64,000 nucleotides of DNA from a virus. A model generated the notes under the pieces. That model was not told the DNA's origin. It searched no databases and was given only the letters and a program-made list of their open reading frames with translations. Position 1 is the stretch's first letter. Every line of letters starts with the position of its first letter. This document shows positions 1 through 39,427 of this stretch, one piece after another. Both the position numbers and the translations under genes were made by a program. The stretch lies in the IMG/VR virus record IMGVR_UViG_3300009285_005630; one strand, written 5' to 3'.

Positions 1-38
1 GCGGAAACTGGGAATTAACCAATCTGACGGCGGGCGAT

Positions 39-974
39 ATGTCTTGGAACAGCATCGGGTATTTGTATATTATCCGAGACTTCGCGCCGTATGACCACGA
101 GATTATGTTTTACGACAGCTATACCGGTTCGGGCACAACCGCGAAATTCCATGTGACGCGCAGAGGGTTGGGAAATTCTACGGCTACCTTAACGGGCGGA
201 ACCGCCGTGCGCTGGATGTTCATACCTACAGGTAGCTTTCGGTTCCTTCTGCGTTCCTATTCCGCACAATATCCCGCCTGGATTGCCGCCGTGTCCTTCC
301 CGAAACTCGTGCATGATAAGCTAGGGCTGACCACCCATGATATCAATTATCTCGGGCTGTCAGGTGGAAACCCTATTTATCAAATGCTCCCGGCAACCTC
401 GCTTGACGGTTCTTATGGTGGGACCTGGGGAACAGGAACAGGGAAATACTCCAATAAATACCCTGCTGATCCTGGGGTAACCGCTACGGTTGGAGTCGCG
501 TACAACGATATCGTCGCCAACCCCTTGATGGGCAACGATAACTATATTCCTCTGCACACGTACGACGCAGACAACTCCACGTATCGGACTGCTGGGTCGG
601 TCGTCAACAAGCCTTCGGCAGGGACTAAAATCCTGTTCTGGACACAGGGAGGCTCCCCGACATTTGGATCCCTTGCCTTTATGGGGACGGATGAGGTTGT
701 GCTCGGCAACTCTCACCCAAACCAAGGCGACCTCGTGGAGATTGTAGTGGGGTGTAAAAATCGGGAAGCCTTGCTTAATAGCATCTTACGATTTGAGGTT
801 ATGTCCCGTGACTTGGATGAGGTCTCTCTGTCCTACACGGTCCAATCCGTTCCGACGACGTTCTTCTACGGCCCATATCCCTTTAAGGGGTTTCTGCACA
901 CGGGAGACGTTATTGAGGCGGCTATAGGGTCCTGGTCGAATGGCCCGCTGGGCTTCAACGGTCTGTACCGATAG
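39..974 (+). CDS. Hypothetical protein, possibly virion structural
   Basis: 311-aa G/T/S-rich ORF upstream of the lysis genes; no motif recognised. Confidence 0.4.
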   Translation: MSWNSIGYLYIIRDFAPYDHEIMFYDSYTGSGTTAKFHVTRRGLGNSTATLTGGTAVRWMFIPTGSFRFLLRSYSAQYPAWIAAVSFPKLVHDKLGLTTHDINYLGLSGGNPIYQMLPATSLDGSYGGTWGTGTGKYSNKYPADPGVTATVGVAYNDIVANPLMGNDNYIPLHTYDADNSTYRTAGSVVNKPSAGTKILFWTQGGSPTFGSLAFMGTDEVVLGNSHPNQGDLVEIVVGCKNREALLNSILRFEVMSRDLDEVSLSYTVQSVPTTFFYGPYPFKGFLHTGDVIEAAIGSWSNGPLGFNGLYR

Positions 975-1018
975 GAGGTTCCTGATAGCGGTGGGGGGTT
1001 GGAAGCCCGGCTAAATCC

Positions 1019-1033
1019 TGTCAGAAAAGGATG
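1019..1033 (+). promoter_or_regulatory. Candidate phage late-promoter motif TGTCAGA-RNAG-N-A
   Basis: Same motif at 56570, 59385 and 62371, all ahead of late/virion genes; ATG 12 nt after the motif start here. Confidence 0.35.
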
Positions 1034-1288
1034 AAATTCAGACTGGATGAACCGCTGGGACTCCCGCGTGGCTCCGTTCGCGCCCTTTTATCCCTCCTGT
1101 TAGTTTCGGGGTGGCTGTTTTTTGTTGGGTGGGCGATTATGGTACAAGGGGCGACGGTCAAGGACGCATTTTCCGATACCCCGGAAGTCATTGGCATGGT
1201 GATGGTCTTCTACTTCGTCCAGCGTATGACTGCCACTCAAGGAATCCCCCCGGCACCACCGGAGGTCCAACCTGGAGGAATCCAATGA
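1031..1288 (+). CDS. Small two-TM membrane protein, putative holin
   Basis: PLGLPRGSVRALL followed by two hydrophobic segments; two genes upstream of the endolysin. Confidence 0.45.
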   Translation: MKFRLDEPLGLPRGSVRALLSLLLVSGWLFFVGWAIMVQGATVKDAFSDTPEVIGMVMVFYFVQRMTATQGIPPAPPEVQPGGIQ

Positions 1289-1671
1289 AGCCTATTGACC
1301 GTCTTGTCCTGGCATTGCAAAAAGCGATTACAGAACTGGAATATTGCCAGGAGAAAATGGGCAACGATAGAAAATCCACGCGCGCGGCCATTATCGCTGA
1401 GGCGGTATCGGCGGTGCGCGAGTGGCAGCGCAACCCTAAGCAGGAGGCTCTCATGAGCAAGTTTGACGAGGCCCTAAAACGTCTCAACGCCTTGACCGAA
1501 GCCACGGACCCCAACGATCAGAAATGCGCCACGTGCCGGTACTACCAACCGGGCACCAAGTCGTGCGGTGAAGAGTACCGTGTGGTCAAGCTCCACACGT
1601 ATTTCAACCTCGTGGACTGGACGCAGAAGCCTGGCGAACCCAACATCTGTCTCGTTTGGCAGGGCAAGTGA
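1285..1671 (+). CDS. Hypothetical protein with Cys-rich C-terminus
   Basis: ATG at 1285 overlaps the previous stop; helical N-terminus, CATC...C...C at the end. Confidence 0.5.
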   Translation: MKPIDRLVLALQKAITELEYCQEKMGNDRKSTRAAIIAEAVSAVREWQRNPKQEALMSKFDEALKRLNALTEATDPNDQKCATCRYYQPGTKSCGEEYRVVKLHTYFNLVDWTQKPGEPNICLVWQGK

Positions 1672-1672
1672 C

Positions 1673-2161
1673 ATGGAGGACCCGCGTCGGCCGGATGTTC
1701 CGGTCGGCTACGAGGGGTTGACCCGCGTGTGCAGTCAGCCCCCGGAGGACATGGAGCACAGGCGCAATTGGGAGGCGCATAACCTCGTTCGCGTCCCGTT
1801 CTTAGCTCCTATTCCCCTAGCGTGGGATCCCAAGACCAAGGCTACACAGGTGTGGGTGCATAAGTACATTCAAGACGTGGTAACGGATACCTTTATGGTT
1901 CTGTACACGAACGGACTGTGGAGTCTGTTGGAGGACTTCGGTGGAGCGTATATGTACCGCACCAAGCGGGGATACGCCAGTAAACTGTCGGTTCACAGTT
2001 TTGGGATGGCACTGGACTTCTGCTGCGTCTCAAACCCCCTGGGAAAGAAGCCCGAGATGCCGGATGCCTTGGTAACAGCGTTTACTGATCTGGGATGGGT
2101 GTGGGGGGGCGCATGGCGTCGCCCCGACGGGCAACATTTTCAATACGCGCGGCAAGTGTAG
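1673..2161 (+). CDS. Endolysin, M15-family (L-Ala-D-Glu/D,D-peptidase-like) zinc peptidase
   Basis: SVHSFGMALD and WGGAW..DGQHFQ motifs carry the His/Asp/His zinc ligands of M15 peptidases. Confidence 0.85.
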   Translation: MEDPRRPDVPVGYEGLTRVCSQPPEDMEHRRNWEAHNLVRVPFLAPIPLAWDPKTKATQVWVHKYIQDVVTDTFMVLYTNGLWSLLEDFGGAYMYRTKRGYASKLSVHSFGMALDFCCVSNPLGKKPEMPDALVTAFTDLGWVWGGAWRRPDGQHFQYARQV

Positions 2162-2173
2162 GAGGAGTTTGAG

Positions 2174-2632
2174 ATGAACGTCGCTCAGGTCGTTGATCGG
2201 TTGCTTACGGAGGAATCCGCCGCTGCGCGGTTGCCGGATGATCTTCGGACGAAGGCCCTGGCCATGGCGCGGGACGGGTGGAAGACGCTCAAGCAGATGT
2301 ACGCCTTGAAGCCAAAGGGCCAGGAAGTAACTCCTGAGATCGAGGCCCAAGCCAAGGAACTCGGCATGGGATTCATTGGTCGTCACGCGGCCACGATTCA
2401 CGCCTTGGTCAAGGCTCTTCCCAAGCCAGTGTCCTCCATCAAGTCCACCACCATTACCGTTGACGAGTTTGTCAGTTGGTACTTGCGGATGCTGGATCGC
2501 CCGGAGAAGATCACCAGTTGGGCATGGGATTTTGTCCCCAAGTATCAGCGGAGTGACCCTGGTGCGCCTATGTCCAGGCTATTCAATGACAACTATAGCC
2601 CCGTCCAATGGGACGCTTTCCTAGACCTGTAA
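2174..2632 (+). CDS. Tagged hypothetical protein (N-terminal VVDRLLTEE), putative internal head protein
   Basis: SD GGAGGAG; N-terminal tag shared with neighbouring genes. Confidence 0.6.
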   Translation: MNVAQVVDRLLTEESAAARLPDDLRTKALAMARDGWKTLKQMYALKPKGQEVTPEIEAQAKELGMGFIGRHAATIHALVKALPKPVSSIKSTTITVDEFVSWYLRMLDRPEKITSWAWDFVPKYQRSDPGAPMSRLFNDNYSPVQWDAFLDL

Positions 2633-2686
2633 GATGAAGACCATGGCCTTGAACCTGTTGGCCGAGAACTAACGACGAGGGACGGC

Positions 2687-3331
2687 ATGGCCTATCGCAA
2701 GTATGTCTTAGATACGAATGGTGGAAGTCTTCTTGGAAGTCCCGAGTGGAAGGAATTCCTGCGAGCACTCAATACGTTCGCGTGGGATGGATACATCAGC
2801 AGCCGCGAGGGTACGCTGGTTGTGTCCGATGAATCCGCCCCGAAGGTATTTGCAGCAGCAAAAAAACATAATCTTGCCCTCTCCAATAAGGGAGTATTTA
2901 AGCCGTTGGAGTCTGCCCGGAAACCGGCCTCGCTCGTTGACCAGCTTCTGAAAGAAGATAGCTCCTTCGGCGATGTCATTTCCAGCTACTCCCGCGCGCA
3001 GGCATTAGAAGATGGGGAACTGGTGGACGTGAGTAAGATCGCCAAGGAAGCCGGAATCAAGTTCCCAACGGCAGTCACGCGGAATCTATTCACCAAATGG
3101 ATTGAACCCAGCGCTGAGGATAAGAAGTACGGCCAAGACCTCCAAGGAAGACTGTGGGACGTGGTGTATATGTTTACCGTCTACGCCAAGCGCACCAGCG
3201 GGTCGCGCATGACCTATCCCGTGATCTTCGCCAAGGGGAAAAAGCACGTCACTGTCAAACTCTTGGCCATCATCGGTCCTGGGGACACTGACGCTCCAAC
3301 CGCGACGATTATGCTGCCGGAGGACGAGTGA
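2687..3331 (+). CDS. Two-module tagged protein, C-terminal module DUF6573-like
   Basis: Internal LES...LVDQLLKE linker, then YSRAQALEDGELVDVS...GRLWDV; true start may be 2634 across a 1-nt frameshift. Confidence 0.55.
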   Translation: MAYRKYVLDTNGGSLLGSPEWKEFLRALNTFAWDGYISSREGTLVVSDESAPKVFAAAKKHNLALSNKGVFKPLESARKPASLVDQLLKEDSSFGDVISSYSRAQALEDGELVDVSKIAKEAGIKFPTAVTRNLFTKWIEPSAEDKKYGQDLQGRLWDVVYMFTVYAKRTSGSRMTYPVIFAKGKKHVTVKLLAIIGPGDTDAPTATIMLPEDE

Positions 3332-3609
3332 CACATACTTTCCGTGCCCGCCTCGACGCACTTCTGGAGCAGGACAACGACCTCCAGAAGAAGCACGACC
3401 GCGCCGTTGACGACGCCAATAGGGTAGCTGGCGACGTGGCTAAAACCCTGTCTATGAACCTGTCGTCAGACCGCGCCGCGCTGGTGGGTCCTGTGGCCGA
3501 TATCATCTACAGGCTCATCGTCGGCGCGGGCACAGGCGGTTTGCGCACGGACGTGGTCACACAGATTGTAACGATGCTGGACGACGCGCATATTAGCGCC
3601 GCAAAGTAG
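3328..3609 (+). CDS. Tagged hypothetical protein (RLDALLEQ)
   Basis: GTG start overlapping the previous stop; tag variant at the N-terminus. Confidence 0.55.
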   Translation: MTHTFRARLDALLEQDNDLQKKHDRAVDDANRVAGDVAKTLSMNLSSDRAALVGPVADIIYRLIVGAGTGGLRTDVVTQIVTMLDDAHISAAK

Positions 3610-3618
3610 GAGGACATA

Positions 3619-3864
3619 ATGGTCAATATCGCCGAAGCCGTTGATAAGTTGCTTTCCGAAGAATCTGGACAAGAGTATAAGATTGCCGACGCAGCCGTCT
3701 CCGCGCTTTCTTCCAAGTTTTCCTCCTTCAAGGAAACGCCTCCAGTGGTTAAAGAGCGTGTTCTTAACATTGTCAAAGCCTTGATCATCATGACGGGAAG
3801 AAACACGTTGACCCCGGCTGGAACGGCAAAGATTCAAGCTCTAGTCAATTCGTTGGCTCAGTAG
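3619..3864 (+). CDS. Tagged hypothetical protein (AVDKLLSEE)
   Basis: SD AGGAGG; N-terminal tag. Confidence 0.6.
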   Translation: MVNIAEAVDKLLSEESGQEYKIADAAVSALSSKFSSFKETPPVVKERVLNIVKALIIMTGRNTLTPAGTAKIQALVNSLAQ

Positions 3865-3871
3865 GTTCTCA

Positions 3872-5245
3872 ATGGCCTCCAGTACGCCGAACCCGACCTC
3901 CAATAAGACCAGCCGAGCAGTGGTGTTTCCGGCCCTCCAACCTGGATCGGATCAACTTCGGACGTTCTCGGAGGCCATCCTTCTCCAGCAAATGCCCGTG
4001 CGCTGGTTCACCGTCGGCGGAAAAATGGCCGTCCTGGCGTTGGAACCGGAGCGCGTAACCGCCCTTGCGAACCAGCAGGGTGTAAAATTCAGCTTCTTAG
4101 ACCCTAACGAGCCCATTCCGCTTGATGTTTTAGGGATTGTCAAGGTGGAAAGTGTGAAAACGCCCTCAGAAATGCCCCAGGATCGTTCGGCGGGGCTTGT
4201 CGGGGGGATGACACTTAAGGACTGCCTTGATGAGCGCCTGACCGGCCTGGACGGAACGACAGCATATCTTTTGGAGGGTATAAAGAATGAAGTCTCCTAT
4301 CCTGCGGGCGATCTCCCAGATTGGGTGTTCCGAAAGCTCTATATCTCGGCACATTCGCATGGTCAAATGGGTCTTCCGATTGTACGCCTGACCCCGGAGA
4401 TTCGCGGGTACATGGAACTGAATTCGGAAGCAACGCTATTCGCTGACGACGGGCATAAAGTTCAAATATCTGAATTGCCTACTAAGAACCCCTTGGAATC
4501 TCATACAAAGGTTCGCGTGTTTAGCCTATCTGCCCTTGTGGACCGGTTACTCCCAGAAATGGCATCCATCGGCGTGCAGGCTGACCATAACAAGCGCATG
4601 CAGGCTTTTCTACGGTCCCATGGCTTCCCCAATGCGGTGCCGATGTACATTGACAAGGGAAGCATGCGGGGCACCTGGCGGATTTACAACAAGGTCCGTG
4701 GAAAGGGGTTGGAGGGGTACGAGAACTGGACGCTTGACGCCGCTGAAAAGCTCAACGCCCTTGGATTCTCCAGCTATGATGGAAAACCCCTTGGGCAACA
4801 CTCTGGGAACGGAGGGTACTTCCAGATATTTGCCCGCTATCGGCCCACGGCGGTTTCTCCCATGGAATCCCAGAAGGTGTCTTTGCCTCGTTTGGTAGAT
4901 CACCTTCTACTGGAAGGATTTTCTCGCTATTGGGAGAACCCTGACGGCTTCACAGATGAGCAGTGGACGGCATTCACGGCCAAGGCCAAGCAGATTATCC
5001 AAGCCGCCGCGCGGAAGAAGATTGTCCTTGCCGGTGGAAACGGAACTGGGAAACCTGTCGTAGACGACAAGGTTGTGATGTTCAATGGAGCCAACCCCGA
5101 TGGGTACGAGACGTGTACAATCCAGCGTGAAGGGGACAAGTTTGGGTTCTGCAAGACGGCGCAGAAACCCTATGACGTGGTGGTCAAAGCAATCTTAGAC
5201 GCGGCGGCGCAAACCAACCCGGATTTCACGGTCACCTCGGGCTAA
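3872..5245 (+). CDS. Multi-module tagged protein (putative polyprotein)
   Basis: Internal LES...LVDRLLPE (4493-4558) and MES...LVDHLLLE (4862-4915) linkers; last module has FNG...FCKTAQKPYD. Confidence 0.6.
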   Translation: MASSTPNPTSNKTSRAVVFPALQPGSDQLRTFSEAILLQQMPVRWFTVGGKMAVLALEPERVTALANQQGVKFSFLDPNEPIPLDVLGIVKVESVKTPSEMPQDRSAGLVGGMTLKDCLDERLTGLDGTTAYLLEGIKNEVSYPAGDLPDWVFRKLYISAHSHGQMGLPIVRLTPEIRGYMELNSEATLFADDGHKVQISELPTKNPLESHTKVRVFSLSALVDRLLPEMASIGVQADHNKRMQAFLRSHGFPNAVPMYIDKGSMRGTWRIYNKVRGKGLEGYENWTLDAAEKLNALGFSSYDGKPLGQHSGNGGYFQIFARYRPTAVSPMESQKVSLPRLVDHLLLEGFSRYWENPDGFTDEQWTAFTAKAKQIIQAAARKKIVLAGGNGTGKPVVDDKVVMFNGANPDGYETCTIQREGDKFGFCKTAQKPYDVVVKAILDAAAQTNPDFTVTSG

Positions 5246-5255
5246 GGAGAATGTC

Positions 5256-5564
5256 ATGGACATTCAGCGACTCACGGACCGATTGTTGACCGAAGGTTTC
5301 ATGAGCGGCAGCTCAGCGTCATTTGCCCAGAAGGCCAACAAGGATATCTCCGCCGTCCAAGACACTATCGAATACGCGCTCCAGAACTTATTGGATTTCC
5401 AGGCAAAGGCCAAAGCCGGGGATGTCAAGTTGAAGGACCCTGAAGCCGTTGCCAAGCTGGCGGTGGAGTTTCACACAATTAAGTCTGACCTGTTTAAGGT
5501 TCAAACAAAATTGAATGAACTGGAGAAAACCGCAATTGTTCGTTTCGTGAAGGGGACGGTGTGA
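5256..5564 (+). CDS. Tagged coiled-coil protein (LTDRLLTEG)
   Basis: SD AAGGAG; N-terminal tag; helical sequence. Confidence 0.6.
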   Translation: MDIQRLTDRLLTEGFMSGSSASFAQKANKDISAVQDTIEYALQNLLDFQAKAKAGDVKLKDPEAVAKLAVEFHTIKSDLFKVQTKLNELEKTAIVRFVKGTV

Positions 5565-6091
5565 CTCGCAGAAGTCTTGTTGACGCCATGCTTTTAGAAG
5601 CTGAGCCTGCCCAGCGTTTGGGCGGCGTGGATGTTTCATCTGTATGGGACTTTGGAGCCGTACGGCTAAAGAGACTTCACGGGAAACTCTATGGGAATAC
5701 CCTCGCGGACCAAGCCATCATGCGATCCCTTGGGTTTGGAGGTTCCATCACTGAGACTGAGTACGAGGCGATGTTGCGCAAGCTGGAAAGTCTTGGCCTT
5801 GGTATCGAAGTCCTGGGCCAAGAAGAATCCATTGCCCATGTTGTCAATACCCTTTTGTTGAAAGAGTACTTGGAGAAGGACTTGAAGTTCAAAGTCTTCA
5901 AGAACCCTGACGCTTTTGGTGCGCGAGAGTGGTCTTTTACGGTGTACTGGAAAGGCAAAGAGTTATTCACACGGGACGATTGCAGTTCCAAGGAGTCCGC
6001 TGAGAAAGAGGCGCACGAGGATATTCAACGCCTGGTCCGAGACACAAAATGGCTGGAAGATCTTGTGGCCGGGACGAAGGGCAAAGCGTGA
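5561..6091 (+). CDS. Two-module tagged protein (LVDAMLLE; VVNTLLLKE)
   Basis: N-terminal and internal tags. Confidence 0.55.
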   Translation: MTRRSLVDAMLLEAEPAQRLGGVDVSSVWDFGAVRLKRLHGKLYGNTLADQAIMRSLGFGGSITETEYEAMLRKLESLGLGIEVLGQEESIAHVVNTLLLKEYLEKDLKFKVFKNPDAFGAREWSFTVYWKGKELFTRDDCSSKESAEKEAHEDIQRLVRDTKWLEDLVAGTKGKA

Positions 6092-6870
6092 AGATACCTC
6101 CTGTTGGGACTAAGTACGTGCTGCACGCTCCAGGAGAACCCGTAGACGGTCAGATATTTATGGTAACCGAAGTTGAAACTCGACAGTATAATGCTGTGGC
6201 AATTCATTTGAAGCGCGCGCAGGATAACCGGATGTCTGAAATGACTCCGGCGGAACTGGAAAAGTCACTGCACGCTGGAAGATTACGCATTCAAGAAGGA
6301 GTTTCTATGCCTATTCGACCTCTGCTGGATAGACTGTTGAAGGAACTGGAGTATAAGGACGTGCGCTACGAGGCCATCCATCGCCTGGGTGAAGTGTCCC
6401 GACAAATCGAGAGGGCTTCCGACATCCTCACGCAGAAGATGCCGGAGATTGACGCCAGGACGTGGAAAATCGAGGCCTCTCTGGTCTCGGGATTCGCGGA
6501 TGAGTTGTCTGCTATCGTCAAACTCATGGGCGACGCGGCCGTGTTCACGGGCAAGCAGGGGGCAGTGGAATCAGTTTCTCCAAGCGCCGCAGTAGATGAT
6601 CTTCTGTCTGAGGACGCAATTACATCCGGCGTGCGCGTGAGCTACAACGCGGCGCTGGCCATCCAAGCCCGACAGATCCAAGCGGGGTACACCTACAAGG
6701 GCAAAGACATTTTCACGCCCGCCGTCGTCGCCAAGATCAAGGCCGCCACCAAGCCCTTGCCGAAGGGAATGGACCCGGATGAGCCGCTACCCGTGCGAGT
6801 CATCAATGAGCTGGTCCCGCGTGGTGGGGCGTTGGAAGACCTCGCGGGCGTGCCCCCGATGGGAAAGTAG
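6088..6870 (+). CDS. Three-module tagged protein (LLDRLLKE; AVDDLLSE)
   Basis: GTG at 6088 overlapping the previous stop; two internal tags. Confidence 0.55.
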   Translation: MKIPPVGTKYVLHAPGEPVDGQIFMVTEVETRQYNAVAIHLKRAQDNRMSEMTPAELEKSLHAGRLRIQEGVSMPIRPLLDRLLKELEYKDVRYEAIHRLGEVSRQIERASDILTQKMPEIDARTWKIEASLVSGFADELSAIVKLMGDAAVFTGKQGAVESVSPSAAVDDLLSEDAITSGVRVSYNAALAIQARQIQAGYTYKGKDIFTPAVVAKIKAATKPLPKGMDPDEPLPVRVINELVPRGGALEDLAGVPPMGK

Positions 6871-6879
6871 GAGCACAGC

Positions 6880-7419
6880 ATGGCAAATTACCTCATCATC
6901 GGTCATCACCCGGATGGTGGAGTCATTGGCGGGAAAATCTACGCGGCCGCCACCAGCCTTGCCGCCGTGGCTTTGGCGCAGGCTGACACAACGTTCTGGG
7001 CCAATTGGAGTGGCGTGGAACGGTTCTCCTTTGAGGAAATCCAGACGGCGGCGGTCCTGACGCCTGACCCCGTTGGCTTGAAGAATATCGCCGCTGCGGC
7101 GGTCAACCCAGCCACGGAAGACACGTTGGCGCTCCTCGCCACGGCTATGGCCCGGTCTTCCAATGCCTATTATGAGAACCAGGCGGGTACGGCGCTGACC
7201 AACGCCTTTGTCCAGCAGGCTTTCGGCTTCACAGCACGTAAGGTTGTGCTATACAACGACGACGGGGCCAACTGGATTGAATGGTCCTGGGATGGTCTGG
7301 CCGTCGCGGGTCGCCTGGAACTCGGGGATCCGCCGTTTGAGATGGACTGGATCAGCCGGACCAGCATCTACCTGCGTGGCCAAGCCGGTGGCGAAAGCTA
7401 CCGCGTGATCGTGCTGTAA
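6880..7419 (+). CDS. Putative virion structural/decoration protein, untagged
   Basis: Ala-rich N-terminal half, NPATEDTL, beta-rich C-terminal domain; SD AGGAG. Confidence 0.4.
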   Translation: MANYLIIGHHPDGGVIGGKIYAAATSLAAVALAQADTTFWANWSGVERFSFEEIQTAAVLTPDPVGLKNIAAAAVNPATEDTLALLATAMARSSNAYYENQAGTALTNAFVQQAFGFTARKVVLYNDDGANWIEWSWDGLAVAGRLELGDPPFEMDWISRTSIYLRGQAGGESYRVIVL

Positions 7420-7429
7420 GGAATCCACA

Positions 7430-7705
7430 ATGAAAAAGTTCCCTGTCCGTTCTCTCGTGGACGGCCTACTCAAAGAAAACCGCTTCCCCGGCAAAGGGCT
7501 GCCCACGGTAGAGTTCTATGTAGTTACCAAGACTCGTCCCGGTGCCTCGTTGAACGATATTTTGTTCAAGACGAACATCGAAGGCATCATTTATCAAATG
7601 GCAGGCGGACTGAAAATCGGAGAAATCGCCGGGCTGTACGGAGAGGCCAACGCCAAAGAGGCCAAGGCCCATGCCGAACGCATTCTGTCCGGTGAGGAAA
7701 AGTAG
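7430..7705 (+). CDS. Tagged hypothetical protein (LVDGLLKEN)
   Basis: SD AAGGA; N-terminal tag. Confidence 0.6.
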   Translation: MKKFPVRSLVDGLLKENRFPGKGLPTVEFYVVTKTRPGASLNDILFKTNIEGIIYQMAGGLKIGEIAGLYGEANAKEAKAHAERILSGEEK

Positions 7706-7712
7706 GCCCTAT

Positions 7713-8567
7713 ATGCCGTACGTTCCTGAGCAAGTAGATCAGTTCTTCTCCCTGTATGTTAAGAACTTGGAGAAGGCGATTCTCAAGTACCCCGCCGACT
7801 ATGGATTTGACCCTGAACAAGGTCCGGCCGGAGCACGAAAACAGGCAGAAGCCACTACCTCAAAAATTCGAGACGTGGTGGTAGTGAAAGGCTTAGGCCA
7901 TGTCAACATCAATAGCAAGGCCTTTGTGTGGACGACCAAGGAATTGAAAATCCCCAACACATATAAAGGCATTGAGGCGTTCTTGAACAAGGCCCCCGGT
8001 TCCAGCACGGAGTCAATTTTACGCATAGCCACTCTCACAGACGCTCTGCTGACCCGTGAGGGGCTATCCAAGGCCGGGATGATGCCGGATGCGCTCCAGA
8101 GCGCCTTGGCCGCTGTTCCGCCTACGGGAGGCACTATCCACGTTCGTGTCTCAACCGATCCCGTGTGGGAGTTCACGTACAAGGACCTGGCGCTGGCCAA
8201 AAAGGCGGCCGAGTCCATCTCCAAGGATCTTGGCGTCCACGTGGATGTTTCCGCACAGCGCAATACACCCCCAGATGCCGTGTACCCTGGCAAACGACAT
8301 TTGAAGCTGGAATCGGTCTCAGTCATCGTTGACGCCCTGCTGGAGAGTGAAGACGCTCCGGGCGCATGGGATAAGACGACGGCAGTAGCTAAGCTGCTGG
8401 CCCGCCGATTGGCCATGCGCGCGGATCGCATCGAGGGCTGGATGCGGCAGTACAACGTAGATCCAAGCAAGCTCTATAGCTTCCTAAAAGATGCTTCTCC
8501 AAGCAATGATGCAGCGTTGAATCAATTCACGGTGGCGGTTGTTAAGATGAAGCCGCTGACCTTCTAA
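7713..8567 (+). CDS. Three-module tagged protein (LTDALLTRE; IVDALLESE)
   Basis: ATG at 7713 after the previous stop; two internal ES...tag linkers. Confidence 0.55.
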   Translation: MPYVPEQVDQFFSLYVKNLEKAILKYPADYGFDPEQGPAGARKQAEATTSKIRDVVVVKGLGHVNINSKAFVWTTKELKIPNTYKGIEAFLNKAPGSSTESILRIATLTDALLTREGLSKAGMMPDALQSALAAVPPTGGTIHVRVSTDPVWEFTYKDLALAKKAAESISKDLGVHVDVSAQRNTPPDAVYPGKRHLKLESVSVIVDALLESEDAPGAWDKTTAVAKLLARRLAMRADRIEGWMRQYNVDPSKLYSFLKDASPSNDAALNQFTVAVVKMKPLTF

Positions 8568-8577
8568 GGAGAAACTC

Positions 8578-9117
8578 ATGGGCTATTCCACCACGGCTAT
8601 TGATCCCCAACGCGCCCTTGCCATCATTAAGGCACAGAAGATGCAACCGGTAGAATGGGCGCATAGCGTGTCCGGTTCCACACCGCCGCGCCTGGCCGCA
8701 ATCGCCAAGAATGTCCAGCATGCGGATCAGACTGACCACGAGCCCGCTAAGATCATTCTCTATCTGGGACCGGATGAGAATGAGTTCATTCAGTACGACG
8801 CCACAGCACAGGAGGAAAGTCTCATGGCCGATAGCCCCGTCCGCAAGATCCTGGAAGCCTACCACGCCAGCCAAGTTGCCAAGATACACACTGTCAAGGA
8901 ATCGGAGGCGTTTGACCACGCGGATGATCTGGACCGCATGGATCAGGTGTTTACCACTGTGCTGAAACGCATGGGGCTATCCTCGCCGGAAGTCCAATCC
9001 TTAGTCACCTCCGTTGGTGATATCGTGCGTGCCCGAATGGATGGTTCCTTGGACAAAATGGACCTCCTCCGCATCGAAAGGTACATTGCCAATCTGGTTG
9101 GAAAACTCTCCTCGTAA
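8578..9117 (+). CDS. Two-module hypothetical protein with divergent internal tag
   Basis: SD AAGGAG; internal EESLMADSPVRKILE. Confidence 0.55.
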   Translation: MGYSTTAIDPQRALAIIKAQKMQPVEWAHSVSGSTPPRLAAIAKNVQHADQTDHEPAKIILYLGPDENEFIQYDATAQEESLMADSPVRKILEAYHASQVAKIHTVKESEAFDHADDLDRMDQVFTTVLKRMGLSSPEVQSLVTSVGDIVRARMDGSLDKMDLLRIERYIANLVGKLSS

Positions 9118-9155
9118 AAGCCTTCATACACCTCCAGAACCGATACAGCCTTGTC

Positions 9156-9186
9156 GGGGGCTAAACCATCAGCCCCCACTTTGTAT
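9156..9186 (+). terminator. Probable intrinsic terminator ending the lysis/tagged-protein operon
   Basis: GGGGGCT-aaaccatc-AGCCCCC hairpin followed by ACTTTGTAT. Confidence 0.55.
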
Positions 9187-9984
9187 GTCTGAGTGACGCT
9201 TTGACATACGGAATATTTCCGTGTTATATCCACACCTATAACAAAAGTGTATCTAAACTACTGATATTTTCTACAGTTACTTGTGCAAACATACACAATG
9301 AATGCGCTGGTTAGTTGTACTAAGTCTTTAGTTGTCAATAACTGGCATAAGTTTATGGGAACTTGGTACACTTGTACTGTCTGCCAGCACAGTTATTTAA
9401 TATGTTATAGTCTATGTTGATCCTTCCGTGCTTGCCACATGAACTCGCGCGGAGGGGCCGGGATTTAGGCAAAAGAGGGAAAAGGAAGGAAGAAAACCCA
9501 TATAAGGAAAGATAGATAGATAAGAGAGTTTTAGATCGAAAACCTTCCAAGTAGCTTCGCTACTTGTTCAGGTTTTCTACCTCAGCTTTTCGTTTAGACT
9601 CGCAGAGTAGAAACAAAGTTTACTCTTATTTGCAACGGTTCTCTTCTCCAAACTCACTCCACGAGCCATTGGTACAGGTATGGGCTTTCTCTCCACTATC
9701 TCTCAACGCTCTTCCTGTACTTCCCTTCGTTCCGATTCCTTGTTCCTCTGCGAGACTCTTCACACCCTCCCAGCCCCCACGAGTCTCGGGTATTGGCAGG
9801 CGCAGTCCTCCCTCCCCCACCCTTGCGCCATGCCAATACGTTTCCGCTCCGCTGTTCGAGATGCAACCGTAAGCCGGGAGGTTTGGGCCAGCGCGCTAAC
9901 TCCAGGATTCCGCATCTTCCTCTTGACAAAAGCTATTTGGCGTGTTTTTATATAATCGAAATCTGAAAGGAGGCTATACAAGCC
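9187..9984. other. Long non-coding region with several hairpins and purine/pyrimidine-skewed tracts (candidate origin or ncRNA)
   Basis: No credible ORF; AT-rich first half; inverted repeats at 9548-9566, 9672-9720, 9751-9788 and 9790-9839. Confidence 0.5.
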
Positions 9985-10275
9985 ATGAAAGTAAAGATCG
10001 ATCTGAAAGTCCTGTTCGCGTTTTTCATTAAGGCCATTTATCCCGCTTTGAAGCATCTCTTCCTGACCATCGGGATGGACGGCTACAAGCGCGCGGTCGC
10101 GCTCGTCAAAGAGGCGGAAAGTCACACGGACTGGGACGGGGACACGAAGTACAAGTTCGTATACGACGGCCTGGTGGAGTGGTTTAAGGCCAAGGGGCGT
10201 GAGGTGAAGGAGAATCGCATCAATCTGCTCATCGAGCTGGCCGTGGAGATCCTGACTTCCGCCTTCGGAGGGTAG
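9985..10275 (+). CDS. Small membrane protein resembling LL-H-type phage holins
   Basis: Hydrophobic N-terminus, then KYKFVYDGLVEWFKAKG...INLLIELAV; SD AAAGGAGG. Confidence 0.45.
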   Translation: MKVKIDLKVLFAFFIKAIYPALKHLFLTIGMDGYKRAVALVKEAESHTDWDGDTKYKFVYDGLVEWFKAKGREVKENRINLLIELAVEILTSAFGG

Positions 10276-10276
10276 T

Positions 10277-10597
10277 ATGACCACGCGGAAGCACGAACTG
10301 GCGCACGCCCTTGAGCAGCAGTTGCCCCTCTCCCAGAAGCAAGCCCTGGAGGCGGTGAACGTCTTCATCCGGACGATTCGGGAATCGCTGAATCGGGATG
10401 AGGTCGTGGTCATTCGCGGGTTGGCGACTTTTGGCACCAAGATCGTCAAGGAACGGAATTACCGGAACCCCGTGGATGGTTCCCCGTTGACGGTTCCCGA
10501 GCATCGTGTCGTGACCTGCAAGATCGGGCGACGGCTCAATGACTTCATCCGGGGAACGGCGGAAGCGGAGGACGTGAACGAGACCGGCGAAGACTGA
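10277..10597 (+). CDS. HU/IHF-family DNA-binding protein
   Basis: KHELAHAL...VVIRGLATF...RNYRNPVDG...V pattern of HU. Confidence 0.9.
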   Translation: MTTRKHELAHALEQQLPLSQKQALEAVNVFIRTIRESLNRDEVVVIRGLATFGTKIVKERNYRNPVDGSPLTVPEHRVVTCKIGRRLNDFIRGTAEAEDVNETGED

Positions 10598-10650
10598 CCC
10601 ATTGTTTATCCCAGCGGGACCGCCCTCGTCCCGCTCCCCGCAACGGGGAT

Positions 10651-10680
10651 GGCGCGCTGCCTTCGGCGCGCCTTTTTATT
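10651..10680 (+). terminator. Intrinsic terminator
   Basis: GGCGCGC/GCGCGCC stem followed by TTTTTATT. Confidence 0.8.
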
Positions 10681-10683
10681 GTC

Positions 10684-10711
10684 TTGACAAACAAAAAAGT
10701 TATGGTATACT
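10684..10711 (+). promoter_or_regulatory. Sigma70-type promoter, probably leaderless transcript
   Basis: TTGACA-16-TATACT with TG extension; ATG 7 nt downstream. Confidence 0.75.
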
Positions 10712-10718
10712 CCCCGGC

Positions 10719-12362
10719 ATGTCACACGTAGAGATCACGGCGTCGAGGGCCGTGCCCAGCTTGGTACTGACGGTTTCGGGGAACACGACGCGGGTAGTGA
10801 CTACACTCCCGGCGTCGGTGATTGATGAACGTCTATCCATCGCGGATCCCACGGCGTGGTACTCGACGGCGTTTAACACATGCGGCAAGTGTGGATATCG
10901 CGGTAACGGGAAGTACAACCGGCGTCCATTCGATGGTGTGTTCCATTGCCTGAATGCTTCCTGTAAGGCGGTGGGCTGGACGAAGTGGGACGGGCGGAAG
11001 CATTTTTACAGCGTGGCCACACGCGGGTTCCCCACGGGGTTGCTGTGGGAGACCATGACCTGGCCGGACGCGGAGGGGCTCACGGTGAACGTGTCGGATT
11101 CCACAGGGGTCTATCCTCATCTGCCGCCGGAGTTTCTCCTCTACCGGGACATGGTGCTGGAACTGATTGGCGAGCAAAAGCCTCGTGATGTGCCCGCTTT
11201 CCTAGCCCGAAACGCCGCGTGCCTCCGGACTGTGTTCCCCGGTGTCATTCCCGACCAACTGGGAGACAAGGTGTTCCGCCCATATCAACGGGAGGCCGTC
11301 GAAGCCGCGTGCCTGATGGGTGGTGGAGTCGTGCATTCGCCAACGGGATCGGGAAAAAGTTTGATAGGTGCCGGAATACTCTACGCCTATGGTGGGGGCA
11401 TGCTGATTGTGAAGGGGCGTGACCTGCTGGCCCAATCGCGGGAGGTCTTTCACAAGTACCTGGGAGAGGAAATTGGCATCATCGGCGAGAATACGGTGGA
11501 CTACCGGAAATACACCGTAGCCTCGATTGACACACTGGATTCCCGCTCGGCGGATCCCGAAGTCAAGCGTATCCTCAAGACGGTTCCCGCCGTGGTGAAC
11601 GATGAAACCCATCATGCCACGTCCAAGACGTGGTACTCCGTCCTGATGAAAATCACCACGCCCCTGCATTGGGGGATGTCCGGCACCCCCTATCGCCGGA
11701 TGGTTGTGGAGGACATGAAACTATCCGCCGTGGTGGGTCCCCTGGTCTTCGATCTGCCGACGACGACACTCCAGGAGGCTGGGTATCTGTCCAAGGCCGT
11801 GCTGACTCTGGTGGACAACCAGGTCCCTTCGGATCGCGGCATGACCTGGCAAGCTGTGCGAAAATTCTCCGTTGTGGAAAATATCGAACGCAATGATACC
11901 ATCGTGCGCATGGCGGCCCAGCGTTCTGAAAGCGGGAAGAAAATACTCATTATCGTAGGAACTTCCATCGCGCATGGCCGCGCGCTGGAAACCCTTCTTC
12001 AGGAGCGACATCCTGCACTGCGCACGCGCTTTGTGGCGGCTACGGAAGACGGTGTGAAGGAGACGACGCGCCTACGCCACGAAATCAACTCAGGGGATGT
12101 GGACATTGCCATCGCCACGATCTGGTTAGATGAAGGAATAGACTGTCCAGACTTGGACTGCGTGCTGCTGGCATACGGGGGCAAGTCCTACGTGAAGATC
12201 GTGCAACGCATCGGACGGGGCCTGCGCCCGAAGGTCAACGGCGTGGAAGTGATAGACTTCAAGGACAAGGGATCACGGTTCTTATCCGCGCATTCAAGAG
12301 CGCGTCAGCGGTTCTACGAAGAGGAGGGAATTTTCATGGAGATTCAGGAAGTCGTGGTATGA
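10719..12362 (+). CDS. SF2 DExH helicase, UvsW-like, with N-terminal Cys cluster
   Basis: SPTGSGKS, DETHH, SGTP and QRIGRGLR motifs; CGKC...C...C near the N-terminus. Confidence 0.85.
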   Translation: MSHVEITASRAVPSLVLTVSGNTTRVVTTLPASVIDERLSIADPTAWYSTAFNTCGKCGYRGNGKYNRRPFDGVFHCLNASCKAVGWTKWDGRKHFYSVATRGFPTGLLWETMTWPDAEGLTVNVSDSTGVYPHLPPEFLLYRDMVLELIGEQKPRDVPAFLARNAACLRTVFPGVIPDQLGDKVFRPYQREAVEAACLMGGGVVHSPTGSGKSLIGAGILYAYGGGMLIVKGRDLLAQSREVFHKYLGEEIGIIGENTVDYRKYTVASIDTLDSRSADPEVKRILKTVPAVVNDETHHATSKTWYSVLMKITTPLHWGMSGTPYRRMVVEDMKLSAVVGPLVFDLPTTTLQEAGYLSKAVLTLVDNQVPSDRGMTWQAVRKFSVVENIERNDTIVRMAAQRSESGKKILIIVGTSIAHGRALETLLQERHPALRTRFVAATEDGVKETTRLRHEINSGDVDIAIATIWLDEGIDCPDLDCVLLAYGGKSYVKIVQRIGRGLRPKVNGVEVIDFKDKGSRFLSAHSRARQRFYEEEGIFMEIQEVVV

Positions 12363-15390: not shown

Positions 15391-17868
15391 ATGATCTGCT
15401 CACAGTGTGGCTTGCGCGTTGAATGCCGAGCGCCCGTTCCGGCGGAGATCGGGGATAACTACTCGGGCTTGTTGATTGTCGGCGAAGCGCCCGGTCGCGC
15501 CGAAGATGCTAAGGGGCGTCCGTTCATCGGGGAATCCGGTGAACTGCTCATGGAGATCATGAAAGAGTCTGGCATCGCGCGAGATACCGTGTCTATCTCT
15601 AATATCTGCCGGTGCTTCCCCTCCATCCAAAAGACGCCTTCCCCGGAGCAGGCGGCTGTCTGTACGCAGGCGTGGCTACTGGATGAGATCACTGCGCTGG
15701 AACCGAAGGTCATCCTGGCCTTAGGGAAGCTGGCGGCCGTGTTCTTCTCCGGGAACGCTAAAATCAAGATCGCGAAGGCGTCCGGGACCGTGGTGAAGTG
15801 GTTGCATCCCGTCACGCAAAAAGAATACGCCGTCGTGCTTGGCGTTCATCCCGCCTATGTCCTGCGCAATCCGGCTGACGTGCCATTGCTTTCCCAAGCC
15901 GTCCAGGTTGCCATGCGGGAACAGCGCGGATCCAGCGTCACCGTGCCGATGGACCTCTTGGACCTGACGCCCATGTTGATGCACCCGGATACAACGGAGC
16001 AGGACCTGAGTTCCATGCTGCCCTTTTTGCAGGATCCCGACGTGTCTGTGGTGATGGATCTGGAAACGTCTCGCAAGGAACCCTATGCGCCGGACGCATT
16101 CATTGTCAGCATGGCCTTTACGGTTTCCAAGCCTTTACCTTCCGGCGGAATGGATGAGGTATATTTTGTCCTATGGAGACATGACGACGGCGGCGCGTGG
16201 GAGTCCCCCGGTGGGCAGAAATTCCTCACCCTCCTACGGGAGTCACGATGCGGATGGATTGGTCACCACGTCAAATTTGACGCTTGGTTTACGACGGCAC
16301 ATTGGGCCTGGCGACCAAGAATTGTCTACGACACGATGATTGCGCACTCGTTGACGGAGGAGTCCTCGGCCAGCTTGAAAAAGATAGCGTGGAGCCTGAC
16401 GCCCTACGGAGGGTATGAGGAGGCGTTGGATTACGACATAGAGCAGGGCATGCAGCATTGCCCGCTCGACAACCTGCGCTATTACAACGGGGCGGACGTG
16501 GTGGTGGCCAACTTCATTTACCGCCGGTTCATCCGGGAGCGGAGATTGAAGGGGGCGCAACGCACGGTTGTCATGGATCAAATTCTTGCTCCAGCGTCTA
16601 TGGCCGTGCCGGATATGGAATCCGGCGGGATCCGCATTGACGTGTCGGCGTTGCAGGAAAAGAAGGTCAGCTATGCCACGCGCATTATCGAACTGGACGG
16701 ACGGATTCGCTGGCACGCGGAAGTGGAACGCGCTATCGCTAAGGGGGTAATCTCTCGTGACGCCGTGGCGGAGATGAACATCGCCTCCTCAGAACAGCTT
16801 GGAACCCTCTTGTACGGAGTTCTGGGCTATCCCATCGTGAAGGAGACGGCTGGAGGGAAAACAGGCCATGCTCGCCCCAGCACGGACAAGGAGGCGTTGA
16901 AACTCCTGTCACAGCAGACGGGGCCTGAGGGTGTGGCTGGGCTGTTACTGGAATACCGGCGACTGAGTAAGTTGAAAACCACGTACTTGGATGGCCTGGA
17001 GGCCGCCGTGGTCAACGGACGTGTGTACCCAACATACTGGATCGCCCGGTATGACGACGGTAAGGATCACGGCGGCACCGTGACGGGACGGCTATCGTGT
17101 TCAAATCCGAGTCTTCACACCATTCCCCGCGACTCGGATATCAAGGAACTGTTCCTACCTGAGGAAGATGAATTCCTGTGCGTGGTGGACTTTAGCCAAC
17201 TGGAGGTGCGCGTGGTATCCGTGCTAGCGCAGGATGCTCGCATGCGGGCATTCTTTCTGTCTGGCCAGGACTTGCATCGTCAGGTCGCGGCGGCCATTGG
17301 CAAGAAGCCCCCTGAGGACGTGACAGACGAGGAACGCAAGCGCGCCAAGACCATCACCTTTGGACTGTTGTACGGGAAGGAACCGCAGTCATTGTCCGTG
17401 GACCTGGGAATAACCCTGTTGGAGGCGCAGAAATTTTACAGGGAGTACTTCCAGACGTTCCCGGATGTGGCGCGGTGGCGTGAGGAGGCCATGGCATTTG
17501 CGCGCAAGCACGGTTGGTGCGCCACCCCACTGGGGCGCATCCGAACCCTGCAAGGATTCTCTGATTCTGAGCGGGATCGGAGATCCGTGAATAGTCCCAT
17601 CCAAAGCACGGCCTCCGATATCTGCTTGAACTCCCTTGTTCGGCTCTATGCGTTCCTGCGCGCGGAGGAATTGGGAACAACCTTGCGTGGAACCGTGCAT
17701 GATTCCATCCTGTTGTCGGTTCCTGAGAAGGAACTGGATATGATCCCGGAGTACAAGCGCCGGTGTGAGGACGTGCCATTCCCTGAGTTGACGGAGTTTG
17801 GGATTCCGTTCTCCCTGGACGTGCAGCTTGGCATGAACTGGGGTAACACTGAAAAGATATTGGGCTGA
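15391..17868 (+). CDS. Family-A DNA polymerase with N-terminal family-4 UDG-like domain and 3'-5' exonuclease
   Basis: VGEAPG..ED..GRPFIGESG, HPAYVLR (UDG); DLET (exonuclease); DFSQLEVR, RAKTITFGLLYG and VHDS (Pol A motifs A/B/C). Confidence 0.92.
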   Translation: MICSQCGLRVECRAPVPAEIGDNYSGLLIVGEAPGRAEDAKGRPFIGESGELLMEIMKESGIARDTVSISNICRCFPSIQKTPSPEQAAVCTQAWLLDEITALEPKVILALGKLAAVFFSGNAKIKIAKASGTVVKWLHPVTQKEYAVVLGVHPAYVLRNPADVPLLSQAVQVAMREQRGSSVTVPMDLLDLTPMLMHPDTTEQDLSSMLPFLQDPDVSVVMDLETSRKEPYAPDAFIVSMAFTVSKPLPSGGMDEVYFVLWRHDDGGAWESPGGQKFLTLLRESRCGWIGHHVKFDAWFTTAHWAWRPRIVYDTMIAHSLTEESSASLKKIAWSLTPYGGYEEALDYDIEQGMQHCPLDNLRYYNGADVVVANFIYRRFIRERRLKGAQRTVVMDQILAPASMAVPDMESGGIRIDVSALQEKKVSYATRIIELDGRIRWHAEVERAIAKGVISRDAVAEMNIASSEQLGTLLYGVLGYPIVKETAGGKTGHARPSTDKEALKLLSQQTGPEGVAGLLLEYRRLSKLKTTYLDGLEAAVVNGRVYPTYWIARYDDGKDHGGTVTGRLSCSNPSLHTIPRDSDIKELFLPEEDEFLCVVDFSQLEVRVVSVLAQDARMRAFFLSGQDLHRQVAAAIGKKPPEDVTDEERKRAKTITFGLLYGKEPQSLSVDLGITLLEAQKFYREYFQTFPDVARWREEAMAFARKHGWCATPLGRIRTLQGFSDSERDRRSVNSPIQSTASDICLNSLVRLYAFLRAEELGTTLRGTVHDSILLSVPEKELDMIPEYKRRCEDVPFPELTEFGIPFSLDVQLGMNWGNTEKILG

Positions 17869-31098: not shown

Positions 31099-31127
31099 TT
31101 GACAAACTCGCTAAACTATGGTATAGT
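31099..31127 (+). promoter_or_regulatory. Sigma70-type promoter, probably leaderless transcript
   Basis: TTGACA-17-TATAGT; ATG 6 nt downstream. Confidence 0.8.
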
Positions 31128-31133
31128 ACAGCC

Positions 31134-31457
31134 ATGAAACAATGTCCTCGCTGTGGAGCGCCGTATGACAGGGACGTGCTGGTGGGGATCTCGGGCAACA
31201 CGTTCGGGCGCAAGTTTTCCTGCGGGACTATCGTCGGGCCAGCCGTGCAGGATATCAGCACACCTCCCGATGGGGTTACCGTGCTGTGGGCCGCCTGTGC
31301 GTATTTCGTGCAACGGGCTGCCCAGATAGACTCGCAGGTGGAGCAAATATTTCGAGCTGCGACATTCAACGCCTCCTCCTGGTACGAATCGGCATCTGGT
31401 GTTGCGCAGTTGACTAAAGCCGAACAGGAGCGCGTGTTACAAATCATTCGACTCTGA
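31134..31457 (+). CDS. Cys-containing hypothetical protein
   Basis: CPRC at the N-terminus; no SD. Confidence 0.55.
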   Translation: MKQCPRCGAPYDRDVLVGISGNTFGRKFSCGTIVGPAVQDISTPPDGVTVLWAACAYFVQRAAQIDSQVEQIFRAATFNASSWYESASGVAQLTKAEQERVLQIIRL

Positions 31458-37895: not shown

Positions 37896-38264
37896 GTGAC
37901 GCAACAGAACTGTGTTGGGAAGGTCCACTACCCGCTGTGGTATCGTCTGACCAACCTTATTCCTGCAATTCGGAGGAAACGGCAAGCGATCTGGGACAAT
38001 GTACTTAAGCGCAAAGGGCCTTTCATTTACCTTCCCTATACGCCTGTGTATAAACCCCTTTCCATGGATGACATTGTACGTGGGTACAGCCCCTTGTGGG
38101 CGAGACTGCTCTATTTCCTGCCCGTGGTGCGTCGCTATGCCAATCGGAGATTCTCCCGGATGCCTATGGTTAGAGCCTATGCGCAGAGGCCCATCAACAA
38201 GATGTTCTACCAGGTGGGCACGATTAACACGGGTAAACACGACGCTGGAGACTCCCATGAATGA
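37896..38264 (+). CDS. Hypothetical protein with internal repeat and gp23 C-terminal-like segments
   Basis: YPLWYRL..IPAIRR / YSPLWARL..LPVVRR repeat; FIYLPYTPV and RAYAQRPINKMFY. Confidence 0.45.
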   Translation: MTQQNCVGKVHYPLWYRLTNLIPAIRRKRQAIWDNVLKRKGPFIYLPYTPVYKPLSMDDIVRGYSPLWARLLYFLPVVRRYANRRFSRMPMVRAYAQRPINKMFYQVGTINTGKHDAGDSHE

Positions 38265-39045: not shown

Positions 39046-39110
39046 CATACATCACCGGTCGGTCTGAGCGTGAGAAGGCATAGGGAACCCATCGGGAGTA
39101 CCTGGACCAC

Positions 39111-39405: not shown

Positions 39406-39427
39406 GCGTTCTTGAGGAATCAGTACG

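Follow-up and report, generated by a model that had tools for sequence, protein, structure and literature searches.

We analysed a 64,000-nt stretch of DNA (hereafter the window) from an uncultured phage, IMG/VR virus record IMGVR_UViG_3300009285_005630, and examined its longest gene-free stretch, a gap of 867 nt at positions 9118-9984. We interpret this gap as the leftmost early control region of the phage, which would act mainly through a plus-strand RNA, the untranslated leader of the first early operon. This reading is tentative, with a probability of about 45%, and the gap possibly doubles as a replication origin. The anatomy of the gap is seen in its sequence; its transcription and the stabilisation, processing and termination of the RNA are what we infer from that anatomy. 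The elements concerned are listed here by position in the window.

9118..9984, unstranded: the non-coding gap in full, bounded on the left by the stop codon of a 179-amino-acid (aa) open reading frame (ORF; 8578-9117) and on the right by the ATG of a 96-aa ORF (9985-10275)
9156..9177, plus strand: T1, terminator-like hairpin at the late operon end, with a 7-bp G+C stem and then ACTTTGT
9180..9211, plus strand: T2, second strong hairpin, 10+4 bp in the minimum free energy fold of 9150-9240, with a perfect 7-bp core at 9183-9209
9201..9230, plus strand: P1, candidate promoter with TTGACA, an 18-nt spacer and TG-T-TATATC; position weight matrix (PWM) score 18.1
9222..9420, unstranded: AT-rich stretch, from nearest-neighbour stability and GC scans and a 30-nt composition table
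9403..9411, plus strand: P2, candidate promoter with the extended -10 element TGTTATAGT and no -35 element; predicted start at ~9418
9447..9536, plus strand: polypurine tract, up to 87% purine, with a 26-nt pure run, Shine-Dalgarno (SD)-like motifs and (GATA)x3
9538..9577, plus strand: hairpin hp1 (core 9548-9566, 8 bp, TTC loop), 8+8 bp with a 2x3 internal loop, a UUC apical loop and no U tail
9640..9830, plus strand: pyrimidine-rich tract with C over G, which encloses hp2-hp4 and has a composition like that of a Rho loading (rut) site
9672..9720, plus strand: hairpin hp2, 7-bp outer and 4-bp inner stem, pyrimidine-rich loop; -12.3 kcal/mol
9751..9788, plus strand: hairpin hp3, 8-bp stem, 22-nt C-rich loop UUCACACCCUCCCAGCCCCCAC; -10.1 kcal/mol
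9790..9839, plus strand: hairpin hp4, 16-bp stem (9+7) with one bulge, 17-nt C-rich loop UCCUCCCUCCCCCACCC, no U tail; -23.1 kcal/mol
9923..9956, plus strand: P3, candidate promoter with a perfect TTGACAAA and an ambiguous -10 element (TGT-TTTTAT at 17 nt or TATAAT at 22 nt); PWM score 20.3, best of the second tier
9964..9987, plus strand: SD sequence AAAGGAGG and ATG (9985) of the 96-aa first early gene, from the sequence, the ORF list and the structural ensemble

The gap is non-coding and lies between late and replication genes

A previous sequence-only reading of this DNA had proposed a structured non-coding region at 9400-9984. Its non-coding nature held up, but its extent did not: the true unit is wider and covers 9118-9984. 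Codon-usage log-odds, calculated with a model trained on 17 long genes from the window, were below zero in all six frames across the gap, compared with +0.3 to +0.6 per codon in the flanking genes. None of the seven gap ORFs of 45-102 aa matched a Pfam or PHROG family, and these two results together speak against a hidden gene or pseudogene. The G+C content was 0.41-0.46 in the gap versus 0.55 window-wide.

We found no second non-coding stretch of similar length in the window; only one other candidate gap, at 39046-39543, was inspected, and the remaining ones overlap listed ORFs. This apparent 0.5-kb gap holds small ORFs with CxxC pairs (e.g., 39111-39242, 43 aa) and a lysine-rich tail (39166-39405), and it probably encodes small zinc-finger proteins rather than being non-coding DNA.

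The plus strand carries all genes of the window, with the gap sitting between the late genes and the DNA-replication genes. Downstream of it follow, in order, the 96-aa protein, an HU-like protein, a UvsW-like superfamily 2 helicase, two unknown proteins, a DnaB-like helicase (its gene ~3 kb from the gap), a DnaG-like primase and PolA. The 96-aa protein has a weak, sub-threshold resemblance to Holin_LLH. The first early operon, encoding the 96-aa and HU-like proteins, extends from 9985 to a canonical terminator at 10650-10680. The proposed placement of the region between the late operon terminator and the HU/replication block was borne out by this gene map and by T1 and T2, which we read as tandem terminators closing the late operon. 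The segment containing them (9150-9240) folds with a z-score of -4.9, and within the gap only 9156-9177 qualifies, weakly, as an intrinsic terminator. The 3' arm of T2 overlaps the -35 element of P1.

Candidate rightward promoters precede the structured region

The host-type promoters of this phage, which are sigma-70/sigma-A-like, have the consensus TTGACAAA, a 16-17 nt spacer and TGGTATAAT, which occurs at nine sites at 10684-49185 and nowhere in 1-9200. Because all nine lie downstream, the gap is the late-to-early junction and would hold the 5'-most early promoters. We built a PWM from these nine clear sites, which scored 22.8-27.3, and scanned both strands with it. The next four sites were P3 (9923; 20.3), 61534, 40975 and P1 (9201; 18.1), and all others scored at most 14.4. 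The TG-n-TATAGT at 9403-9411 that had been suggested as a possible transcript start is indeed present as P2; scored with an extended -10 PWM derived from the nine clear sites, its -10 element ranks 8th of all plus-strand positions, and the seven ahead of it are mostly known promoters. On the minus strand of the gap there was no comparable promoter element, the best ranking 92nd, and we therefore rejected a leftward transcript. Since credible rightward promoters precede the hairpins, a plus-strand RNA is the natural product of the region.

P1 (start ~9237) and P2 (start ~9418) would give untranslated RNAs of ~750 and ~570 nt, respectively, and P3 would give a short-leader, directly translatable mRNA. 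In the predicted folds, the SD sequence of the 96-aa gene is occluded by 9939-9950 (p ~0.9) in the long-leader transcripts only. Messages started at P3 would not include 9939-9950, which precedes their expected 5' end, and would therefore leave the ribosome-binding site free.

Several other observations concern the promoters and terminators of the window. P3 corresponds to the phage consensus with ~5 extra bases (TTTTA) between TG and TATAAT, resulting in a 22-nt spacer, and may be either a crippled or a factor-dependent promoter. A perfect palindrome, ACGGAA-TAT-TTCCGT, unique in the 64 kb, lies at 9208-9222 within the spacer of P1; promoter spacers are a classic operator position, and from its sequence the palindrome looks like an operator for a repressor of the first early promoter. 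Three consecutive G+C-rich hairpins (10598-10683; z -3.6) follow the HU-like gene, just before the leaderless helicase promoter, and the last of them, with its TTTTTATTG tail, forms the canonical terminator.

At four consensus TTGACAAA...TATAAT promoters (10684-10722, 31099-31137, 41411-41449 and 49185-49222), an ATG follows 6-7 nt after the -10 element with no SD sequence, and several early genes thus appear to be leaderless. The helicase, for example, begins at 10719 in the database protein, not at the TTG at 10602 that the ORF finder gave. Strong GGAGG sites are nevertheless present at other genes, so that two modes of translation initiation coexist in one phage, which may be a clue to the host.

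The predicted leader carries four discrete hairpins

All four hairpins reported by the sequence-only reading were found at the positions given there, and three are well beyond chance, with z-scores of -3.7 to -6.6. For hp1, the fold energy was about -18 to -19.5 kcal/mol, with z-scores of -6.6 on the plus strand, -5.8 on the minus strand and -6.0 with DNA parameters. The corresponding plus- and minus-strand values were -3.7 and -2.1 for hp2, and -5.7 and -3.1 for hp3 and hp4 taken jointly. One G-U pair occurs in each of hp2 and hp4, where the other strand would have an A-C mismatch; in hp2 this pair, possible on the plus strand only, belongs to the inner stem. The stronger plus-strand z-scores favour a role for that strand. 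The hairpins were also significant when folded with DNA parameters.

As had been described, the loops of hp2, hp3 and hp4 are rich in C and T. Ensemble folding of the predicted P2 transcript leaves the loops of hp3 and hp4 unpaired, with probabilities of 0.96 and 0.99, respectively. Across the 64-kb window, hairpin density is highest in the gap, which has nine perfect stems of at least 7 bp compared with a mean of 1.84 per 867 nt, the window maximum. Outside the hairpins, the leader (9418-9537 and 9574-9670) showed no excess of structure over shuffled sequences, and the 145 nt that directly precede the 96-aa gene had less structure than random (z +2.0). The region is hence a set of discrete hairpins and not a single large fold, and it is these hairpins that account for the whole-region z-score of -2.3. 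None of hp1-hp4 has a U tail. They are not terminators, because U tracts mark the phage's real terminators (at 62315, 49127 and 10650) and are absent from hp1-hp4.

The region had also been proposed to be a non-coding RNA or an RNA switch. Of this, the non-coding character, the discrete structure and the rightward promoters upstream stood, and the switch did not. The segment CTCGCAGAG (9599-9607) is an exact 9-bp complement of 9746-9754, as claimed; with ~125,000 position pairs in a 500-nt region, however, ~0.5 such pairings are expected by chance, which leaves the two alternative folds without statistical support. On the minus strand, the G-runs noted opposite the loops are present (GGGTGGGGGAGGGAGG, read opposite 9806-9821), and the complement of each loop has three runs of at least three G. 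A scan for the canonical G-quadruplex motif (G3+N1-7)x4 was negative on both strands of the gap, where we found only two-tetrad (G2) motifs.

Two 7-mers recur in the loops of hp3 and hp4: two of the three CCCTCCC copies on the plus strand of the window fall there, as do two of the four CCCCCAC copies, another of which is in T1. We rejected a conserved loop motif, since two or more 7-mers in common occurred in 21% of composition-matched random pairs (P=0.21). What is unusual about these loops is their C-richness, not a common motif.

A purine tract is followed by a C-rich pyrimidine tract

The purine tract with three GATA repeats, and the pyrimidine tract after it, were both found as the sequence-only reading had set them out. 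Over the first 120 nt downstream of P2, purines abound and C is scarce. No run of pure purine or pure pyrimidine in the 64 kb is longer than the 26 purines at 9471-9496, the runner-up being 18 nt long, and (GATA)x3 lies at 9511-9522. We counted five SD- or GGA-like motifs in the tract, including GGAGG (9451) and AAGGA/AGGAA (9482, 9487 and 9504), and no ATG, GTG or TTG in 9448-9536. The tract has the sequence features of a STAB-SD element, with SD-like motifs complementary to the 3' end of 16S ribosomal RNA, located in a predicted 5' untranslated region with no start codon after them.

In the pyrimidine tract, 9703-9780 contains 35 C and 9 G, giving a C/G ratio of 3.9, the highest among all 78-nt windows, and pyrimidines make up at least 47 of 60 bases across 9681-9771. 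A rut site would be ~80 nt of untranslated, C-rich and G-poor RNA that is largely unpaired; the top C/G ratio and the loops predicted to be unpaired agree with this, yet stable stems frame those loops.

Duplex energies between the polypurine tract and the pyrimidine tract or loops were within the range of composition-matched shuffles (z -0.1 to -2.0). We therefore rejected a designed complementarity between them, because shuffles do equally well. A tract forming H-DNA or a triplex was rejected as well, there being no mirror repeat (arms of at least 8 nt, spacer of at most 8 nt) in 9100-10000; aligned by hand, the 26-nt purine run mirrors itself at 20 of 26 positions.

A model for the leader and its likeness to known systems

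In the reading we prefer, the elements described above would together set the amount of transcription that reaches the first early genes. The polypurine SD-like tract in the 5' part of the leader would hold a 30S subunit and stabilise the RNA in the manner of a STAB-SD. The long imperfect helix of hp1 resembles RNase III substrates, and the stable hairpins without U tails in the middle of the leader would be sites at which the RNA is processed or protected or at which transcription pauses. A termination or RNA-binding factor, for which Rho is the obvious candidate, would load at the exposed C-rich loops.

By analogy, this architecture appears closest to the left-end early region of phage T7, and the 5' stabiliser leaders of Gram-positive bacteria also look alike. 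The T7 left end has the host promoters A1-A3, a long untranslated leader and the RNase III hairpin R0.3 before gene 0.3. Like it, the gap is a ~0.9-kb non-coding late-to-early junction in a genome with unidirectional genes, with tandem host-type promoters and a leader of several hundred nucleotides in which a long, imperfectly paired hairpin precedes the first early gene. The two differ in that there is no sequence similarity, that T7 lacks the purine and pyrimidine tracts and C-rich-loop hairpins found here and that terminal repeats were not seen here. The putative RNase III site of hp1 is also short: this hairpin has 16 bp and a 2x3 internal loop (~20 bp if one mismatch is allowed) and hp4 has 16 bp with a bulge, compared with 20 bp or more for a typical RNase III substrate.

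Polypurine or STAB-SD-type 5' stabilisers, described in PMC7509114 and PMC2358910, which cite Hue et al. 1995 and Agaisse & Lereclus 1996, hold the 30S subunit and protect Gram-positive mRNAs and early mRNAs of phage SP82. In the same two papers, citing Hue et al. 1995, the SP82 early transcript is described as combining a STAB-SD-type stabiliser with an RNase III hairpin. Our tract resembles those of the Bacillus thuringiensis cryIIIA leader and the B. subtilis phage SP82 in having SD-like purines near the predicted 5' end, with GGAGG 33 nt downstream of the predicted P2 start (~9418), and no start codon; it differs in being ~90 nt long with five motifs, instead of a single SD.

Two further comparisons were less close. 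Thermus phages P23-45 and P74-26 are said, in work by Minakhin and colleagues from 2008, to have purine-pyrimidine (triplex-forming) tracts in their largest intergenic regions. The largest gap of P23-45 (847 bp, 38117-38963) lies among early genes; its transcribed strand contains a long pyrimidine tract, after which come promoters of the TTGACA type. It resembles our gap in size and setting, but its tract is ~115 nt of almost pure pyrimidine, whereas the longest pure run here is 26 nt and has no mirror symmetry. Homology was rejected, as a distant PolA is the sole protein the two phages have in common.

Among Firmicutes RNAs, RsaE/RoxS and RNAIII carry unpaired C-rich motifs in hairpin loops. 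The loops of hp3 and hp4 likewise have C-rich motifs able to pair with GGAGG ribosome-binding sites, but they are 17-22 nt long rather than a few nucleotides, and we found no terminator of their own, no Rfam match and no enrichment of phage-gene targets.

Searches for families and relatives

A search of 8800-10300 against Rfam 15, a check that had been suggested for a described RNA family, returned no match at E<=10 apart from hits with E 1.1-7.6, far under the gathering scores; the best of these, to CRISPR-DR31 (E 1.1) at 9096-9129, was dismissed as noise. At gathering scores the whole window gave no Rfam match, and no tRNA or tmRNA was found in it. Neither the gap (by blastn) nor 25 kb of the window (by megablast) matched any of 50,697 phage records. 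Helicase-seeded scans of IMG/VR, JGI metagenomes and GTDB genomes found no relative, and neither hp4 nor the hp3/hp4 junction had an exact DNA match in IMG/VR or among JGI metagenome contigs.

The helicase cluster is a single phage population of ~23 contigs whose helicases are 99-100% identical, which makes up all other copies of this phage in the collections searched, and among 5.8 billion proteins the next helicase and PolA homologues have at most 31% identity. The 80 loci found with a PolA profile had no DNA in common with the gap. Nine loci encode both the helicase and the DnaB-like helicase, and none has a comparable gap, the sole candidate (in locus L068) being coding. Scans of IMG/VR for the loop motifs gave chance matches only, with a 6-bp enclosing stem in 2 of 139 loci.

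Points that weigh against the leader reading

Several of these results count against an early control region acting through its leader RNA. The helicase-DnaB-primase-PolA order recurs in distant phages, but a comparable gap does not, and the searches above found no relatives that could show conservation or covariation. The C-rich loops pair with the purine tract, the gene's SD sequence and phage initiation regions only as their composition predicts. The hairpins fold nearly as well as DNA, with which a role at the DNA level is compatible. The promoter calls are predictions by a PWM made from the phage's own sites, and each departs from the consensus, as P1 lacks the T at -7, P2 lacks a -35 element and P3 has an abnormal spacer. 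Stabilisation involving RNase J and 30S subunits and dependence on Rho are both assumptions about the host.

Alternative explanations

The sequence-only reading had offered a replication origin as one option. In the form we consider, a transcription-primed origin in the style of T7 or of T4 oriF/oriG, transcription from P1, P2 or both would run into DNA that melts easily. The RNA, rich in purines, would remain paired with its pyrimidine-rich template and serve as a primer, and the displaced plus strand would fold into hairpins that keep the bubble open for loading of the DnaB-like helicase. We regard this main rival of our reading as doubtful, although part of the proposal stood. No other non-coding region is as large as the gap, and the genes for HU, the UvsW-like helicase, the DnaB-like helicase, primase and PolA come straight after it. 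An unwinding element follows a candidate promoter: by nearest-neighbour scan, no 60-bp duplex of the window outside an AT-rich intein is less stable than 9222-9281, directly downstream of P1. A purine- and G-rich non-template tract begins ~30 nt after P2, the hairpins are significant also as single-stranded DNA and the 64 kb contain no other origin-like repeat array.

Against this, the gap has no iterons and no tandem or dispersed repeat family, no integration host factor (IHF) site and no enrichment of DnaA boxes (one with one mismatch, versus 11 in the 64 kb). An iteron- or DnaA-type origin was accordingly rejected for want of an initiator-site cluster, although an AT-rich element is present. 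Cumulative GC skew, suggested as a check, proved uninformative, since it rises monotonically with merely a local dip at the gap. Low GC is ordinary for any promoter region, we identified no origin-binding protein and 33 kb of the genome lies outside the window. The strongest hairpins also stand where the nascent RNA would be C-rich, the orientation less prone to R-loops.

Established transcription-primed origins include the primary origin of T7 (phi1.1A/B and an AT-rich region), T4 oriF and oriG (promoter, unwinding element and R-loop) and ColE1 RNA II. The gap shares with them a candidate promoter upstream of the DNA that melts most readily, a predicted transcript that is long, untranslated and rich in hairpins and has a G- and purine-rich segment, and a position next to replication genes that include a UvsW-like helicase. 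It differs in that signatures of RNase H or of primer processing are missing, as is an antisense regulator, and in placing its strongest hairpins in C-rich RNA.

It is unlikely that the gap has no function beyond its promoters, the tracts and hairpins being leftover decayed or imported DNA between modules. Its GC is 10-15 points under the genome average, no relatives show conservation and several features that seemed designed reduce to chance or composition. However, near-perfect 16-bp stems with z-scores near -6 would not survive neutral decay, hairpin density is the highest in the window and the phage is otherwise tightly packed, with no comparably long non-coding gap elsewhere.

A stand-alone RNA acting in trans is slightly harder still to credit. 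In this case, CCUCC loops on the P2 transcript, or on a fragment processed from it, would mimic the 16S anti-SD sequence and block host ribosome-binding sites; in a variant, 30S subunits or an RNA-binding protein of the host would be sequestered by its purine tract, which is rich in GGA. Adjacent hairpins with different stems both present very C-rich, fully exposed, CCUCC-bearing loops, which hold the recurrent CCCTCCC (2 of 3) and CCCCCAC (2 of 4) copies described above, and the purine tract has its five SD/GGA-like motifs and no start codon. By contrast, there is no terminator to set a 3' end and no Rfam family match, the likeness of the loops is not significant at fixed composition (P=0.21) and 17-22 nt is far larger than the loops of known small RNAs. 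Pairing of the loops with phage ribosome-binding sites was unsupported, as 87 phage initiation regions paired with them no better than random windows. We think it very unlikely that the P2 transcript is an RNA-only device for host takeover in the first minutes of infection, in which the tract would capture 30S subunits or a GGA-binding regulator while the CCUCC loops mask host ribosome-binding sites.

We give similarly little credence to the idea that the gap is a packaging signal or the physical end of the genome, which, in a linear genome injecting its early genes first, as in T7, would fall where late genes give way to early ones: all genes of the window lie on the plus strand, the gap is a late-to-early junction and hairpin-rich non-coding DNA is typical of concatemer junctions such as those of T7, but the gap has no direct repeats or repeat arrays, the portal is of the T4 type and, for the large terminase, close relatives that have been characterised are lacking, its identity to those of Vibrio siphophages being at most 33%.

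Other genes of the window

In the packaging module, the portal matched Portal_T4 (E 2e-41) and the large terminase had no Pfam match (54687-56633 and 56642-58207). The nearest relatives of the terminase (~33% identity) are in ~80-kb Vibrio siphophages and in Gordonia and Thermus phages, and from these sequence matches the module is judged to be a mosaic. Just upstream of the terminase genes, a 199-aa ORF (53576-54175) has a C-terminal Cpn10/GroES domain (E 4e-23), which identifies its predicted product as a phage co-chaperonin with an additional N-terminal part. The family A DNA polymerase (15391-17868) combines an N-terminal domain of the uracil-DNA-glycosylase superfamily with a 3'-5' exonuclease domain, and the same fusion, at 24-33% identity, is encoded by more than 500 IMG/VR contigs.

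Significance

Elements of this kind are already known, and the gap adds one more. Early control regions govern the takeover of the host by a phage and have been little explored beyond a few model phages. This one combines a stabiliser-like purine tract, C-rich loops like those that load a factor, and a promoter with an unwinding element, all beside the replication genes. Its present value is a clean map of elements for users with transcript or read data, and it holds no surprise for specialists. If the origin reading is true, the gap would mark the start of the replication module. If the leader regulates read-through or stability, the logic of 5' stabilisers of the Gram-positive type and of attenuation would extend to an uncultured groundwater phage.

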